Of a stretch of 64,000 bases of DNA, positions 7,850 through 52,378 are shown one piece after another (the stretch's first letter is position 1; each line of letters opens with the position of its first letter). A model generated the notes under the pieces. The model searched no databases, was not told the DNA's origin, and worked only from the letters and a program-made list of their open reading frames with translations. Made by a program: the position numbers and the translations under genes. This stretch comes from Bacteroidales bacterium (GTDB lineage Bacteria; Bacteroidota; Bacteroidia; Bacteroidales; ML635J-15). Where the stretch lies: assembly GCA_027858835.1 (NCBI GenBank), contig JAQIBY010000009.1:19151-83150 (forward strand), given 5' to 3'.

Positions 7850-10429
7850 TTATCCGCATTTTGAATATCCACACTCTGTACAAATCACACAACCATCCTG
7901 ATAAATCAGGCTGTCTGTTTCATCACACTCCGGACATTTTGTTCCTTTTTTAGATGCCTGAGTTCCATTTGGGATATAGCGTTTCAATGCACGTTCTACA
8001 CCATTTTTCCAGGTATTAATGCTTTCGCTGTCTAATTTCAAAGATGAAACCAACTCGGTTGCTTTATCAATCGGCATACCATGTCTCAATACTGAAGAAA
8101 TCAGTTTTGCATAATTCCAATATTCTGCATCAAATTGATGTGATAAGCCTTCAAATGTGGTACTGTATCCGTATTTGTTTTTGTATTGAAAATCGTAGCG
8201 ACTGTTTCCGTTTTCGTCGCGATTTTTAATGATTTTCCCTTTTTCAACCGTCGAAGGAACCATCAATACATCCTCTTCCTGACGACCTGTAAATATCTCA
8301 TAAGGCCTGTCATCCATCAATCCGACAAAAGCAATCCATCTTTCTTTATTATTCTGAAAACGCACAATGTCCGCTTCCAGAACTTTCGGACGTTTGTGTG
8401 CGATATGTGGTTCGTCTTTTTTCTTACTGTTAGAGATAAGTACACCGTCACGTGAGCCGTCACGATAAACTGTTACCCCTTTGCATCCTACTTTCCAAGC
8501 TTCACGATAAAGGTCATCTACGAGAGACTCTTCAGTGCTCTCAGGTAAATTGATGGTTACAGAAATTGAATGGTCAACCCATTTTTGGATTTTCCCTTGC
8601 ATACGTACTTTATTTAACCAATCCACATCGTTGGATGAGGCTTTGTAATAAGGTGATTTTGCAACAAGTTTATTCACTTCATTTTCTTCCATATTACGCA
8701 CTTCATCAGGATTATAGCCGTTTACTTTCAGCCAAGTTGCGAATTTCGAATGGAATACCACGTATTCTTCCCACTTATCTCCGATTTCATCAACAAAATC
8801 TACTCTGACATTCGGATCGTTGGGATTGACTTTTCTGCGACGGCGATAAACGGGCATAAAAACCGGCTCAACTCCTGAGGTTGTTTGTGTCATTAAACTG
8901 GTTGTTCCAGTCGGAGCAATTGTCAGCAAACTGATATTTCTTCTGCCCCATTTTTCCATATCTTCAATCATTTCCGGATCTTGTTCTTTCAGACGATTGA
9001 TAAACGGATTGTCTTTCTCGCGAGTTGGGTCGTAAATTTGGAATGCACCACGCTCTTTTGCCATTTTGATAGATGAACGATATGCTTCTATTGCTATATT
9101 TTTGTGAATTTCCTCTGAGAAATTCGTTGCGTCTTCAGTTCCGTACCGTAAGCCCATAGCAGCAAGCATGTCTCCTTCTGCCGTAATGCCAACACCAGTA
9201 CGACGTCCCTGAATGGCTTTCTTTTTGATTTTTTCCCAAAGATTTTTCTCAGTACGTTTTACTTCATAATCTTCAGGGTCACTTGCGATTTTAGCAAGAA
9301 TTCCGTCAATTTTTTCAATTTCTAAATCGATGATATTATCCATAATCCGCTGTGCTGCTTGAACATGGTCTTTGAATTTTTCCATATTAAAACGGGCATT
9401 TTCAGAGAATGGATTTTCAACATAAGAGTAAAGATTTACAGCAAGCAAACGACATGAATCGTAAGGACAAAGTGGAATTTCACCGCAAGGATTTGTTGAA
9501 ACCGTCTCAAAACCAAGGTCTGCATAACAATCCGGCACAGATTCATTTATAATTGTATCCCAAAACAGTACACCAGGTTCAGCAGATTTCCAAGCATTAT
9601 GAATAACTTTTTTCCAAAGATCTTTCGGGTCTATTTCTTTTTGATATCTGGGTTGATTGGAATCAATGGGAAAACGTTGAACATAGGTTTGATTGTTATT
9701 CAATGCTCTCATGAAATCATCATGAATTTTAACAGAGACATTTGCTCCTGTAACTTTCCCGGATTCCATTTTTGCATCAATAAAATCTCCTGCATCCGGA
9801 TGTTTTACGGACACACTTAACATCAAGGCACCTCTGCGTCCATCCTGAGCAACCTCACGGGTTGTATTTGAATAGCGCTCCATAAACGGTACAATTCCTG
9901 TTGAAGTCAGTGCAGAGTTCTTTACAGGGCTTCCCTGGGGGCGAAGATGAGACAAATCATGTCCGACACCACCACGACGTTTCATAAGTTGAACTTGCTC
10001 TTGATCAATTTTCAAAATTCCTCCATAGGAGTCGCTGCGATCTTCATTTCCAATAACAAAGCAATTTGACAATGAAACAATCTGGCGGTCATTTCCGATA
10101 CCGGACATTGGTCCTCCTTGCGGGACAATGTATTTAAAATCTTTCAGGAGCTGATAAATGTGCTCCTCAGCCATGGGGTTGTCATATTTATTTTCAACTC
10201 TGAAAATTTCTTTCGCTAATCGACGATGCATATCATCCGGAGTAAGTTCATATAATTTCCCGTCTGAATCTTTCAGTGCATATTTATTAATCCAAACGCG
10301 AGCTGCCAGGGTGTCGCCTTTGAAATATTCTAAACTGGCATTATAGGCCTCTTCATCAGTATAACTCTTTGTTTTCGAGTCATGCATAGCAGTTTCTTTC
10401 AATATTTTCTCATCAATTAACATAAGCAA
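7850..10429 (-). CDS. nrdJ: class II (adenosylcobalamin-dependent) ribonucleotide reductase
   Basis: 859 aa with RNR large-subunit motifs (NPCGEI, active-site Cys region) and a C-terminal CxxC...CxxC zinc ribbon. The start may instead be the Met at 10387 (MHDSKTKSY...). Confidence 0.9.
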   Translation of the reverse strand: MLMLIDEKILKETAMHDSKTKSYTDEEAYNASLEYFKGDTLAARVWINKYALKDSDGKLYELTPDDMHRRLAKEIFRVENKYDNPMAEEHIYQLLKDFKYIVPQGGPMSGIGNDRQIVSLSNCFVIGNEDRSDSYGGILKIDQEQVQLMKRRGGVGHDLSHLRPQGSPVKNSALTSTGIVPFMERYSNTTREVAQDGRRGALMLSVSVKHPDAGDFIDAKMESGKVTGANVSVKIHDDFMRALNNNQTYVQRFPIDSNQPRYQKEIDPKDLWKKVIHNAWKSAEPGVLFWDTIINESVPDCYADLGFETVSTNPCGEIPLCPYDSCRLLAVNLYSYVENPFSENARFNMEKFKDHVQAAQRIMDNIIDLEIEKIDGILAKIASDPEDYEVKRTEKNLWEKIKKKAIQGRRTGVGITAEGDMLAAMGLRYGTEDATNFSEEIHKNIAIEAYRSSIKMAKERGAFQIYDPTREKDNPFINRLKEQDPEMIEDMEKWGRRNISLLTIAPTGTTSLMTQTTSGVEPVFMPVYRRRRKVNPNDPNVRVDFVDEIGDKWEEYVVFHSKFATWLKVNGYNPDEVRNMEENEVNKLVAKSPYYKASSNDVDWLNKVRMQGKIQKWVDHSISVTINLPESTEESLVDDLYREAWKVGCKGVTVYRDGSRDGVLISNSKKKDEPHIAHKRPKVLEADIVRFQNNKERWIAFVGLMDDRPYEIFTGRQEEDVLMVPSTVEKGKIIKNRDENGNSRYDFQYKNKYGYSTTFEGLSHQFDAEYWNYAKLISSVLRHGMPIDKATELVSSLKLDSESINTWKNGVERALKRYIPNGTQASKKGTKCPECDETDSLIYQDGCVICTECGYSKCG

Positions 10430-42394: not shown

Positions 42395-42447
42395 CCTGCG
42401 AAATTGCGGAAATTTATTAACTTGAGCAATGAAAAAATAAACGAAAC

Positions 42448-42966
42448 ATGAGAAAACTAAAATTTAATTTATTGATGCCACTGTTGTTGTTTTATGCGTT
42501 AAACTTGCATGCGCAATGTGAATCACATATTAAATTTGATAGTTTAGTAAACGATAAGATTTTAATTGACACACTTTCTTGGGATTGTTTTGAAAATGCC
42601 GGATTTTCTGAATGGTTTACAGCAAATTATGATGCGTACCCTGTTGATAGCGAAAGCTTGGTAGATTTTCAGAATAACGACACAACAATTAAAATGCTTA
42701 TTTATTTGGCAACTTGGTGCCCGGATACACGAAGGGAATTGCCTCGCATGAAAAAAATCCTTGACAAATTAAATGTCAATTGGGATATTAATTTAATCGG
42801 ATTAAATCGAAAAAAACAATTATCCGATGGGGAATCGCCGGAGAACGGAATTACTCATGTACCTAGTTTTGTAATTTTTCAGAATAATATGGAAATCGGT
42901 AGAATTGTTGAGCGCCCTGAACAAAGTCTTGAAAAGGATTTGAAAAAAATACTTAATGCAAAATAA
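42448..42966 (+). CDS. secreted thioredoxin-fold protein with a single-Cys WCPDT motif
   Basis: Signal peptide. LATWCPDTRRELP sits at the position of the thioredoxin WCxxC motif, and VPSFVIF is the cis-Pro loop region. Confidence 0.6.
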   Translation: MRKLKFNLLMPLLLFYALNLHAQCESHIKFDSLVNDKILIDTLSWDCFENAGFSEWFTANYDAYPVDSESLVDFQNNDTTIKMLIYLATWCPDTRRELPRMKKILDKLNVNWDINLIGLNRKKQLSDGESPENGITHVPSFVIFQNNMEIGRIVERPEQSLEKDLKKILNAK

Positions 42967-42974
42967 AAACATGC

Positions 42975-43150
42975 ACCAAGTTTGGACTGTCATGCCCCAG
43001 CTCCCGCGCCCTGACAAAGGCCGGCAGCCCGTATGCTGCGATGCGTTGCTGTTGCCCCAGCAGCTTAGCGACCAAAGGAAGCTCAAGCACGCCGGTTTTG
43101 CAACAGCCGCAGAGCAGGATACGGCTATAGGCCGTAGGCAGTAACCCGAA
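42975..43150 (+). ncRNA. candidate structured RNA of unknown family (GC-rich island); strand uncertain
   Basis: 103 of 170 nt are G+C (42981-43150, hand count) versus 31 of 100 in the next 100 nt. A near-continuous 22-bp helix pairs 43029-43055 with 43100-43124 and includes the perfect 8-bp GCTGTTGC/GCAACAGC. An apical AGCTT/AAGCT hairpin lies at 43062-43083. The two ORFs crossing this region look non-genic. Confidence 0.35.
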
Positions 43151-43309
43151 TTATTCACCATTATATAATTAAGTTTCACTATGACTGCGAGTTTATCTGT
43201 ACAAAGTGAGTGACATAAATAATTCGTGTTAAGGCGCCCAAAAAAACATAAAAAACAAGCGAGTTTTTTCGATGTATTTCTAAAATATGATAGAATAAAT
43301 AGCGTTTCT

Positions 43310-43345
43310 AAGCATTGGGTTGTCCTTAATGGCTTGTTTTTTTTT
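43310..43345 (+). terminator. candidate intrinsic terminator in the non-coding gap
   Basis: AAGCATT...AATGGCTT stem (7 bp with one bulge), followed by G and a 9-T run (43337-43345). Confidence 0.35.
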
Positions 43346-43476
43346 AACATTATTTAGAAACAGTCAAATTGTGCAGAAAATCCTTCAATCTTTCAACATG
43401 TTACGATCCTAATATAGATTAAATATAAATTACGAATATTCGCAGATTTTTGTTTCTCTAATTAAGAAAGTAAAAT

Positions 43477-43513: not shown

Positions 43514-43684
43514 ATGGCTTACGTAATTAATGATGATTGTACTGCATGTGGAACATGCCTAGACGAATGTCCGGTAGAAGCGATTTCAGAAGGAGATATT
43601 TATGTAATTGATCCAGACGTTTGCACTGATTGCGGTGCTTGCGCTGATGTTTGCCCGGTAGAAGCAATTCACCCGGAAGACTAG
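43514..43684 (+). CDS. 2x[4Fe-4S] ferredoxin (56 aa; absent from the ORF track)
   Basis: Hand translation gives MAYVINDDCTACGTCLDECPVEAISEGDIYVIDPDVCTDCGACADVCPVEAIHPED*, which contains two CxxCxxCxxxCP motifs. Confidence 0.88.
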   Translation: MAYVINDDCTACGTCLDECPVEAISEGDIYVIDPDVCTDCGACADVCPVEAIHPED

Positions 43685-49905: not shown

Positions 49906-50538
49906 ATGAAAACAATCTTGATTCCTTTTATTGCAATGCTTGCTTTAGTTTCTTGCCAAGGGCAAACAGAAACACAAGCCGAACAAGCAGCTGAAACAGA
50001 AACAACTAAAGATGTGGAAGAAAAATCTGATAAATCCTTTGAATTAACGACATGGGAAGCCTTAGATTTTAATACGGTTGAGTTGTTTGGCACCGACTGG
50101 GCGCTTGTTGCAGCCGGCAATATGGATGATTATAATATGATGACCATCTCTTGGGGTTCCTGGGGTTGGCTTTGGGGAAAACCGGTCAGTAATGTTTATG
50201 TCAGACCACAGCGACATACACACAATTACACCGAGCGTGAAGAATATTTCACCATCTGTTTTTTTAATGATGAAGACAAAGAAGCCCTGAAAAAAATGGG
50301 AAGCGTTTCAGGTCGCGATTTTGATAAGATGAATTATGATAAACTCACCGCTTTCGAAACTAAAAACGGCTCAATTGGGTTTGAAGAAGCCTACCTTGTC
50401 GTTGAGTGCCGAAAAATTTATGCCACGGTATTGCAAGAAGCAGATTTTGTGGATGGTTCACTCGGCGAAAATGTCTATCCCGAAAAGGATTTTCACACGC
50501 ATTATGTCGGTGAGATCACGAATGTTTACTTGAAATAA
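49906..50538 (+). CDS. lipoprotein with a flavin-reductase-like (split-barrel) domain
   Basis: Lipobox (ALVSCQ), then an acidic linker, then a segment (NMMTISWGSWGWLWGKP...YVRPQRHT) resembling the flavin reductase family. Confidence 0.55.
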   Translation: MKTILIPFIAMLALVSCQGQTETQAEQAAETETTKDVEEKSDKSFELTTWEALDFNTVELFGTDWALVAAGNMDDYNMMTISWGSWGWLWGKPVSNVYVRPQRHTHNYTEREEYFTICFFNDEDKEALKKMGSVSGRDFDKMNYDKLTAFETKNGSIGFEEAYLVVECRKIYATVLQEADFVDGSLGENVYPEKDFHTHYVGEITNVYLK

Positions 50539-50740
50539 TTAGTCTCATACATTTTGTTTGTGGAGGTTTTGCCAGAATTTATCCTTTTCACCATGTTTTC
50601 CAATTAATCTCGCATTACAGTTTAATATTAAAGTGTGTACGGGATTAAAACGGGATATTATTTATGGTGTTTTAACCATGAAAGCTTGCACGCCAATTTA
50701 TTAATTAAAAATAGCAGCCTTCCAAAAATAAGCTACCAGT

Positions 50741-50759
50741 AGCCTTCTGAAAGAAGGCT
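50741..50759. other. hairpin AGCCTTC-TGAAA-GAAGGCT
   Basis: 7-bp perfect stem with a 5-nt loop, inside the convergent gap. Confidence 0.4.
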
Positions 50760-50807
50760 TTGTGGGTGGGATTGGCAGACCGCAAGCCAGCGTTGGCTGT
50801 GAATGGT

Positions 50808-50876
50808 GGATTTTTTTGTAAAATCCAGCAGATGCTTTAGACACGTTCTTATTAGATTTTACAAAAATCCAGCAGA
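50808..50876. repeat. two A/T hairpins, each followed by AGCAGA; 13-nt exact direct repeat AAAATCCAGCAGA (50820-50832 and 50864-50876)
   Basis: Hairpin A is GGATTTT-TTTGT-AAAATCC (50808-50826). Hairpin B is GATTTT-ACA-AAAATC (50855-50869). Both were read directly. Confidence 0.6.
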
Positions 50877-50912
50877 GTGGGTATGACTGTCGGTGCTGCC
50901 TTGTCTTTTTTG

Positions 50913-50943
50913 CTTCCTTTTTTTGACTAAGAAAAAAAGGAAG
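50913..50943. terminator. 12-bp perfect hairpin CTTCCTTTTTTT-GACTAAG-AAAAAAAGGAAG downstream of the phosphatase gene
   Basis: It lies 44 nt past the stop of the minus-strand alkaline phosphatase gene. There is no separate trailing U-run, so terminator function is uncertain. Confidence 0.45.
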
Positions 50944-50986
50944 AGAAAATAAAATGCGCTATTCGGGATAAGGAAAAAAGTAAAGA

Positions 50987-52378
50987 CTAATAATCAAACC
51001 CACATGCTTCCATAATTTTTTTTGGGATATCTGTATTGTCGTAACTCCCTGAAAAAAGCATTTGACTGTTCCCGATTGCATAAACGGGGACAGGTTCTGC
51101 CGTATGATCCCAATTTGTAAAACCAACCCCGCTGCGTAAATTCAAAATTTTGTTGCAGGTTTTCAAATATGGATGATATGCTCCGTAATCCATGTGATAA
51201 TCCGGATTATCTTGAGGGTGTTTTGCCAATGCTAACATGGACAATTCCCAATCACTTAAATCATCTATCCCATAAATATCCTCAATCATAGATTTGTCAA
51301 AAGATTTATCAATACTGATTTTTCTGCTGCGATAATAAGACATGCGTTGTTTTTTAAGCATCGCAAAGTCTGTATCATATCCACCGGAAGCATTTCCAAG
51401 GCTTAATCCTCCGGTTTCATGATCTGATGTTACAATAATCAGACATTCATCGGGATGCTCAAGATAAAAATTTAGGGCTTGCTGAACCGCCAAGTCGAAA
51501 TCTGTCATTTCATGAACAATGGTTGCCGCGTCGTTTTCATGACTTGCCCAGTCAATTTTTCCGCCTTCAACCATCATGAAAAATCCCTGGTCATTCATTA
51601 ATTGCTGAATTCCCGCTTTTGTGATATCAGCAAGTGAATATCCGCCCTCATGTGCTCTGTCAATGGCATAAGGCATTTCTGCATCCGAACCTAATATCGG
51701 ATTAACCAACATGACTTTTTCCCCAACATTCAGCGTATCCGGATTAATTGTTTCTCGATAAATTTGATATCCTGCTTTTTCTGCAAGTGCATAAAGATTT
51801 TTATCTGCAAGGCTGTCCGCTTTATGAAAGCCGCCACCGCCGAAAAAATCAAAATCACTATCAATTAAATCCAATCCGATGCTGTAATAATATTTCCGAC
51901 TGTCTTGATTTGCATAAAAGGCTGCGGGGGTTGCATGATTGATGCTTACTGAAGAAACAATTCCGATTTTATATCCTTGATCCTGAAATTTGTAAGCAAT
52001 GCTTTCATATTTTTCTGTTTTATCGGGTGATTTCCCAATGCGACCTATGTTAGTTTTATATCCCGTTGAAATTGCAGTTCCGGCAGCTGCTGAACCTGTA
52101 ATTAGTCGGTTGTTTGCATGAGTTGTTGATATCCCAGTAATGGGTAAAGTATCAAAACTTAGTGCTTCAAATCCCGGCTTGTCTTGTGTTAAACTATGCA
52201 AATAGGCTTCTGTGAGTTTCACATGAGAAATGCCCATGCCATCACCAATAAACAGAAAAACATATTTCGGCGCTTGGGTATCGTTCTCCGTGATTTTTTT
52301 CGTGTTTGTATCTTGACAAGACATGAAAATCAAAGATACAATGCCTATTCCCGAAAAAAGTTTTATAAAATTCGTCAT
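50987..52378 (-). CDS. alkaline phosphatase (PhoA family)
   Basis: Signal peptide, the FIGDGMG active-site region, and the later SDHETGG motif. Confidence 0.9.
   Translation of the reverse strand: MTNFIKLFSGIGIVSLIFMSCQDTNTKKITENDTQAPKYVFLFIGDGMGISHVKLTEAYLHSLTQDKPGFEALSFDTLPITGISTTHANNRLITGSAAAGTAISTGYKTNIGRIGKSPDKTEKYESIAYKFQDQGYKIGIVSSVSINHATPAAFYANQDSRKYYYSIGLDLIDSDFDFFGGGGFHKADSLADKNLYALAEKAGYQIYRETINPDTLNVGEKVMLVNPILGSDAEMPYAIDRAHEGGYSLADITKAGIQQLMNDQGFFMMVEGGKIDWASHENDAATIVHEMTDFDLAVQQALNFYLEHPDECLIIVTSDHETGGLSLGNASGGYDTDFAMLKKQRMSYYRSRKISIDKSFDKSMIEDIYGIDDLSDWELSMLALAKHPQDNPDYHMDYGAYHPYLKTCNKILNLRSGVGFTNWDHTAEPVPVYAIGNSQMLFSGSYDNTDIPKKIMEACGFDY

Follow-up and report, generated by a model that had tools for sequence, protein, structure and literature searches.

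A GC-rich, self-complementary element of 174 nt (42979-43152, plus strand) lies directly behind a thioredoxin-family gene in the window, the 64,000-nt stretch of DNA from an uncultured Bacteroidales MAG (protein MDA3909871.1) that was analysed here. The element is strongly structured, carries no coding signal and matches no Rfam family. At the corresponding site of L004 (JGI 3300040801), the one relative in which thioredoxin and ferredoxin genes were found to adjoin in the same way, it is absent. With a confidence somewhat short of even, we read it as a lineage-specific insertion: mobile foldback DNA, foreign or non-autonomous (MITE-like), that would sit in the 3' untranslated region (UTR) of the thioredoxin-like gene.

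The base composition of the element differs sharply from that of its surroundings. The GC-rich segment at 42981-43150 contained 103 G+C in 170 nt, compared with 32 in the preceding 100 nt and 31 in the following 100 nt. This recount was identical to the figures given in an earlier note on this DNA (103/170, and 31/100 for the next 100 nt). The element 42979-43152 is 60-63% G+C compared to 37% for the genome, a difference that is hard to derive locally and speaks for an insertion. When the 174 nt were folded as plus-strand RNA, the MFE was -75.4 kcal/mol compared to -57.8 +/- 4.1 kcal/mol for dinucleotide shuffles (z = -4.24, 0/200 shuffles). Among 2201 segments of 174 nt across the 64 kb, the element ranked first both for lowest plus-strand MFE and for highest G+C (+4.9 SD), and its GC-corrected MFE residual of -4.15 SD was the largest of all. 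The element is thus a genuine and exceptional feature of the 64-kb window. The second-largest residual in the window belonged to a hairpin-packed intergenic region of 449 nt between convergent genes (50538-50987). Its hairpins include two GGATTTT..AAAATCC copies, each followed by AGCAG, as well as AGCCTTCTGAAAGAAGGCT and a 12-bp CTTCCTTTTTTT/AAAAAAAGGAAG stem. Its RNA fold gave z = -5.17 on the minus and -2.23 on the plus strand, with no Rfam match.

The predicted fold of the element has 62 pairs and the shape of a Y, in which a closing stem carries one hairpin on the 5' side and a long one on the 3' side. The 5' strand of the outer closing stem (42979-42996) forms 18 pairs with 43130-43152, of which four are G-U, and the stem is bulged. 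The 5' hairpin (43000-43028, 29 nt) has nine G-C-rich pairs, bulges of a single C and a loop of 8 nt, CUGACAAA, and on its own folds at -12.7 kcal/mol (z = -1.7). The irregular 96-nt hairpin (43029-43124) has about 33 Watson-Crick pairs and no G-U pair, and is interrupted by a 1x1 G/G mismatch, a 2x2 tandem GA/GA loop and a UU bulge. Most of this hairpin had been described in the earlier note. All four of its helices were at the exact coordinates and were present in the ViennaRNA MFE fold: CCGTAT 43029-34 with ATACGG 43119-24, CTGC 43036-39 with GCAG 43114-17, TGCG 43042-45 with CGCA 43108-11, and GCTGTTGC 43048-55 with GCAACAGC 43100-07. The GA/GA loop (43040-41 and 43112-13) and the TT bulge (43046-47) were likewise where they had been placed. 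An apical AGCTT/AAGCT hairpin had also been proposed; the MFE fold has an apical hairpin, in a slightly different register, with the apex GCUUAGC-GA-CC-AAA-GG-AA-GCUcAAGC. To the helices already described, the MFE fold adds the outer closing stem and the 5' hairpin.

The arms of the Y meet in a three-way junction which, from the pair list, is strongly asymmetric: the 5' side is 32 nt long and itself folded into a hairpin, and the 3' side is 5 nt long. Two competing pairings that had been pointed out before were confirmed. The local hairpin TACGGC-TATAG-GCCGTA (43120-43136, plus strand; -9.8 kcal/mol, z = -2.7) competes with the base of the 96-nt hairpin, and GCAGC at 43024-28 can pair with GCTGC at 43035-39. 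When the larger region 42960-43350 was folded, 43146-55 paired with 43218-27 and ousted the outermost seven pairs of the closing stem, with the core 42986-43142 unaltered.

The indication of a strand is weak: the long hairpin is as significant on one strand as on the other, and no -7 box of the Bacteroidetes type lies within 100 nt on either. Taken alone, the 96-nt hairpin folds at -48.4 kcal/mol, with z values of -5.71 (plus) and -5.84 (minus). For the whole element the z values were -4.2 (plus) and -1.5 (minus), with a raw minus-strand MFE that was equally low. Part of this plus-strand advantage reflects composition, since shuffles of the minus strand, with its higher G and U content, fold well. 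A plus-strand RNA is favoured because the closing stem needs its four G-U pairs and because the mismatches in the long helix are all purine-purine (G/G and tandem GA/GA). The plus strand is therefore likely.

These same features bear on the main rival explanation, a lineage-specific plus-strand structured small RNA, or a cis-acting 3'-UTR element, that was recently acquired or evolved. Such an RNA would work through an exposed C-rich junction and exposed loops, and the competing pairings at 43024-39 and 43119-36 would permit two conformations. The better plus-strand z, the four G-U pairs, the non-random tandem G-A and G-G mismatches and the alternative hairpins confirmed by folding all fit this explanation. 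GC-rich islands in AT-rich genomes are, moreover, typically RNA genes. Against it, the long hairpin and the raw MFE do not separate the strands, no homologue was found and hence there is no covariation to examine, the element is missing from the syntenic site in its closest relative, and neither a recognisable promoter nor a U-tract terminator after 43152 was seen. On balance we regard a small RNA as possible, if doubtful.

No protein-coding content was detected. Four of the six frames are open across the element, as is expected in GC-rich DNA, and Pfam found no domain in the ORFs of the element. The two ORFs singled out in the earlier note as non-genic, of 176 aa on the minus strand and 62 aa on the plus strand, do exist, and neither has a Pfam domain or a protein relative: the former matched itself alone among 5.8 billion proteins and the latter had no match in an exhaustive scan of 1.84 billion representatives. 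A six-frame concatenated protein query also gave no match, in a search whose 8000-candidate list may have been saturated by the poly-G linkers. A conserved or decayed protein-coding fragment was rejected, since no frame has protein similarity (with the six-frame search limited by its linkers). The NCBI, JGI and Logan records annotate the 176-aa minus-strand ORF (42820-43350) as a 'hypothetical protein' over the element. No relative of this annotated protein was found, and it is almost certainly artefactual, because the GC-rich insert is poor in stop codons.

Nor did the element correspond to a known RNA. In gathering mode, Rfam 15 returned no match in the entire 64-kb window, including for 6S, 6S-Flavo, Bacteroidales-1, Flavo-1, SRP, RNase P, tmRNA, cobalamin and ribozyme families, and ARAGORN found no tRNA or tmRNA. 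The earlier judgement by eye that the element is not RNase P, tmRNA, SRP RNA or a cobalamin riboswitch is consistent with these results. At E <= 10, with queries of 751 nt and 211 nt, the element was overlapped only by mir-33 (16 bits, threshold 50) and IRES_Bip, a eukaryotic IRES (8-12 bits, threshold 40), and both matches are noise. Three further resemblances were considered. A GGAAGC motif near the apical loop recalls SRP RNA, which was rejected as there is no GNRA tetraloop, no symmetric loop and no covariance-model match. The core sites of attC are absent by eye. A resemblance to ssoA rests on TAGCGA (CS-6), and a 6-mer match could easily arise by chance.

A highly divergent housekeeping RNA, of which a 6S-like RNA is the most plausible, was also considered. 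The element resembles 6S RNA (RF00013, and RF01685 for 6S-Flavo) in its size of 174 nt (~175 nt), its closing stem, its long internal stem and its junction-competing pairings, and the mutually exclusive 3' hairpin recalls the 6S rearrangement. Unlike the 6S rod with its large two-sided central bubble, the element has an asymmetric centre (32 nt versus 5 nt) whose 5' side is hairpinned. It matched neither RF00013, RF01685 nor any other family by covariance model, even at E <= 10 on 211 nt, and no promoter is evident. Its absence from the same locus of a relative with 80-85% nucleotide identity is also unlike the conservation of a housekeeping RNA. We therefore consider a 6S-like RNA very unlikely.

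The sequence around the element indicates how it might be expressed. No Bacteroidetes-type -7 box (TAnnTTTG) was present on either strand within 100 nt of the element. As the element has no visible promoter of its own, it is probably co-transcribed within the 3' UTR of the thioredoxin-like gene. A terminator scan found no intrinsic terminator at the end of the element and no T-run follows 43152; the element is thus not an intrinsic terminator, because no U-tract stands behind the hairpin. The nearest T9 run is at 43337-45, preceded by a weak plus-strand hairpin (43309-43345; -6.9 kcal/mol, z = -0.2). In L004 the run of T's is conserved and the preceding hairpin is not clearly so; together they may be the true 3' end of the thioredoxin transcript. 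If it is transcribed in this way, the very stable Y-shaped fold in the 3' UTR could block 3'-to-5' exonucleases, or it could be neutral and simply tolerated.

The genes around the element are housekeeping genes, in the order CxxCxxCC-domain gene, EamA transporter, Thioredoxin_9, element, ferredoxin and GT2 glycosyltransferase. The thioredoxin-family gene (Thioredoxin_9; 42448-42966, plus strand) has its stop codon 12 nt before the element, and a plus-strand gene for a 56-aa 2x[4Fe-4S] ferredoxin follows at 43514-43684. The same species is represented by at least four independent assemblies (the NCBI MAG, Logan SRR22875241, JGI 3300051640 and JGI 3300051638). Three same-species assemblies (L001, L003 and L008) have the element with 100% identity and differ from one another at a few positions in the thioredoxin gene; this identity fits a recent, fixed event. 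In one of these differences, the thioredoxin gene of L008 from JGI 3300051638 is 60 nt short at its 5' end (235-294, corresponding to about 42436-42495 in the window), which gives 166 versus 172 aa. Elsewhere in these assemblies, the class II-type ribonucleotide reductase (L020 17209-19782 versus L021, window 7850-10429) is called as two ORFs (373 + 479 aa) in JGI 3300051640, and JGI 3300051639 and the window each have it as one ORF (857-859 aa). The split reflects a frameshift variant or else an error of assembly.

A riboswitch or leader of the ferredoxin gene was rejected as the identity of the element. Seven loci (L002, L004, L005, L006, L009, L010 and L011) have the identical 56-aa ferredoxin without the element. 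The end of the element lies 360 nt upstream of the ferredoxin start codon and ahead of the ferredoxin's own -7 box, TAAGTTTG at 43477-84. The earlier view that this is not a simple ferredoxin leader, which had pointed to that box, thus holds.

The comparison with L004 provides evidence for an insertion. L004 has the gene order CxxCxxCC, EamA, Thioredoxin_9, ferredoxin, GT2, and by BLAST it is 80.2% identical to the window at the nucleotide level up to 42966, the stop codon, and 85.0% identical from 43240 on. Between these points, 273 nt of the window (42967-43239) are replaced in L004 by 45 unrelated nt. The L004 45-mer was not significantly similar to the GC-rich core, nor to the AT-rich tail at 43156-43239 (p = 0.15), and the window-specific segment is therefore between ~177 and 273 nt long and includes the whole predicted structure. 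The minimal window-specific core is ~42979-43155. That the gap in L004 spans the predicted closed structure (42979-43152) counts for insertion, and the presence/absence pattern together with the composition favours an insertion over a conserved RNA gene. An insertion here is the more probable direction; with a single empty site and no usable outgroup, the difference may instead be a deletion in L004. On this reading, a piece of compositionally foreign, self-complementary DNA of ~175 bp, possibly up to 273 bp, would have entered one Bacteroidales species 12 nt past the stop codon of the thioredoxin-family gene. Most likely, this DNA would be a mobile element of the foldback or MITE-like kind, non-autonomous, or else a fragment captured from one.

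More distant relatives differ in their arrangement at this locus. Behind the thioredoxin orthologues with 72%, 65% and 51% amino-acid identity, the next gene, in convergent orientation, comes after 31-87 nt. These loci have no element, and they do not show whether it was ancestrally present or absent. In L002, L005 and L009-L011 the ferredoxin is identical and the nearby sequence (window 43277-43383) is 85-95% identical, with a peptidase M1/T9SS-tail gene standing upstream where the window has the thioredoxin gene. The spacer between thioredoxin and ferredoxin is therefore a synteny breakpoint in the clade. L004 also carries a HigB-toxin/HTH-antitoxin pair between the GT2 and MGMT-like genes (L004 4341-5134) that is absent from the window; the pair is a further lineage-specific indel a few kb from the element site.

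Repeats within and beside the element are relevant to how it may have arisen. The 3'-terminal 14-mer TAACCCGAATTATT (43142-43155) recurs 62 nt downstream as an inverted copy, AATAATTCGTGTTA (43218-43231), with 13 of 14 positions matching, and the downstream arm is followed by GGCGCCC, which like that arm is absent from L004. None of 300 shuffles of the downstream 200 nt reproduced such an inverted repeat. The motif occurs in element-carrying loci only, and both arms lie within the sequence missing from L004. The inverted copy has the appearance of a surplus transposon end or of a junction left by template switching. Within the element, TGCCCCAGC at 42993-43001 is repeated directly and exactly over 9 nt at 43053-43061, a repeat that is marginal (4% of shuffles contain an exact 9-mer repeat). 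CACCA occurs at 42974-78 and at 43156-60 in the manner of a target duplication and is not significant as one: a shared 5-mer in the boundary zones arises by chance in 21% of shuffles. Separately, GCGCCCTGAACAAAG at the 3' end of the thioredoxin coding sequence (42912-42926) has a near copy, GCGCCCTGACAAAG, around the loop of the 5' hairpin (43006-43019), with a third, partial copy, GCGCCCAAAAAAA, at 43234-46.

The repeats could also belong to a DNA-level site, such as a cruciform or hairpin recognised by a recombinase, relaxase or replication protein, or to a template-switch by-product with inverted duplications. The 96-nt hairpin is a near-perfect DNA palindrome that is significant on both strands, which together with the inverted 14-mer copy and the short internal direct repeats would suit such a site. 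As single-stranded DNA, however, the element folds only modestly (z = -2.3 plus, -2.0 minus), no transposase, recombinase, relaxase or replication gene was present in its neighbourhood, and template switching leaves the source of a 60% G+C sequence unexplained. We consider an origin of this kind improbable.

Searches for relatives and further copies returned only the element itself. No second copy was found in the 64-kb window by blastn-short, and a covariance model of the element (R1) detected only itself in ~190 kb comprising the window, ~16 kb more of the same species and the loci of relatives. In plasmids and phages, blastn in distant mode gave chance matches of 25-30 nt alone. Degenerate patterns from the 62-aa ORF had no match in GTDB species genomes or JGI metagenomes, a weak result as the metagenome set lacked even the identical JGI contig. 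Hybrid plain/purine-pyrimidine DNA patterns gave 0 matches in IMG/VR viral contigs (five scans) and 0 in metagenomes (one scan), and the thioredoxin protein had no match among GTDB genomes. The pattern scans of these collections require exact pattern matches, so that their negatives are weak for non-coding DNA. With that qualification, no homologue was found in the collections searched, a result that the earlier note had itself named as speaking against its proposal of a structured RNA of unknown family. The part of that proposal that stands is that the element is real, non-coding, strongly structured and outside Rfam, including 6S-Flavo, Bacteroidales-1 and Flavo-1, to which it had been thought worth comparing. 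Its membership of an RNA family does not follow, given the lack of homologues and the absence of the element from the L004 site.

Several observations also weigh against the favoured MITE-like insertion. The element is present in a single copy in the sequence searched, its terminal repeats and target duplication are unconvincing, and no relatives were found in the collections searched. Its internal architecture combines tandem GA, exclusively purine-purine mismatches and a three-way junction, which exceeds what a MITE requires. A further reading is a self-contained, horizontally transferred RNA module without a protein, whose foldback ends would close the RNA and at the same time mark the limits of the insertion. 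We regard such a module as a slim possibility. If it were true, the element could be the earliest example seen of a class of GC-rich mobile RNA genes that has so far gone unsampled in AT-rich Bacteroidales. If the element is instead a foldback or MITE-like insertion, it represents ordinary genome flux in a poorly sampled Bacteroidales lineage, and it illustrates that an orphan insertion can satisfy the rule by which a GC-rich, highly structured island in an AT-rich genome is taken for an RNA gene. Should it prove to have both expression and a function, it would offer a rare case: a structured RNA, newly acquired, with two sequenced relatives bracketing its arrival.

Among known systems, the retron msr-msd RNA shares the topology of the element. 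The 18-pair closing stem formed by the ends, the short 29-nt 5' hairpin and the long irregular 96-nt hairpin match the a1/a2 stem, the short msr hairpin and the long msd hairpin of a retron RNA, and the element could in principle be a relic of a retron-type ncRNA. Unlike in retrons, no reverse transcriptase or effector gene was found within 64 kb, and the element did not match a known retron RNA family. The sole [YF]xDD motif in ORFs of at least 150 aa sits in a Ham1-like pyrophosphatase, the Pfam annotation of the identical contigs contains no RVT domain and the neighbours are housekeeping genes. A working retron is effectively refuted by the absence of a reverse transcriptase in 64 kb, and we consider even a relic scarcely plausible.

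The GC clusters of AT-rich organelle genomes offer a second comparison. In yeast mitochondria, GC clusters are palindromic mobile elements of 30-60 bp that are highly repeated. The element is similar to them as a GC-rich self-complementary insertion that differs between close relatives, and is unlike them in being 175 bp long, single-copy and bacterial.

The closest parallels are the MITEs and other small foldback repeats of bacteria. Bacterial MITEs are 70-300 bp long and non-coding, and form robust RNA structures that affect neighbouring mRNAs (PMC3733652). The element departs from this pattern in several respects. It is single-copy in the window, in the ~16 kb more of the same species and in the loci of relatives, and has no known parent insertion sequence. 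MITE terminal inverted repeats are about 15-30 bp long, whereas the 18-pair outer stem of the element contains four G-U pairs, which are mismatches in DNA, as well as bulges. Its G+C content is far above that of the host, it has a three-way junction and RNA-like non-canonical pairs, and it lacks a significant target-site duplication. In size (174-273 bp) and absence of coding capacity, on the other hand, the element is similar to MITEs and small foldback repeats such as Correia/NEMIS, RUP, ERIC, REP/BIME and the IS200/IS605-derived PATEs. Like MITEs, it is intergenic, lies just after a gene and would form a robust hairpin if transcribed. It also shows presence and absence at an orthologous site (the window versus L004) and has an extra inverted terminal 14-mer nearby. 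Collectively, these comparisons suggest classing the element as an orphan foldback insertion, an oddity that is ordinary in kind.
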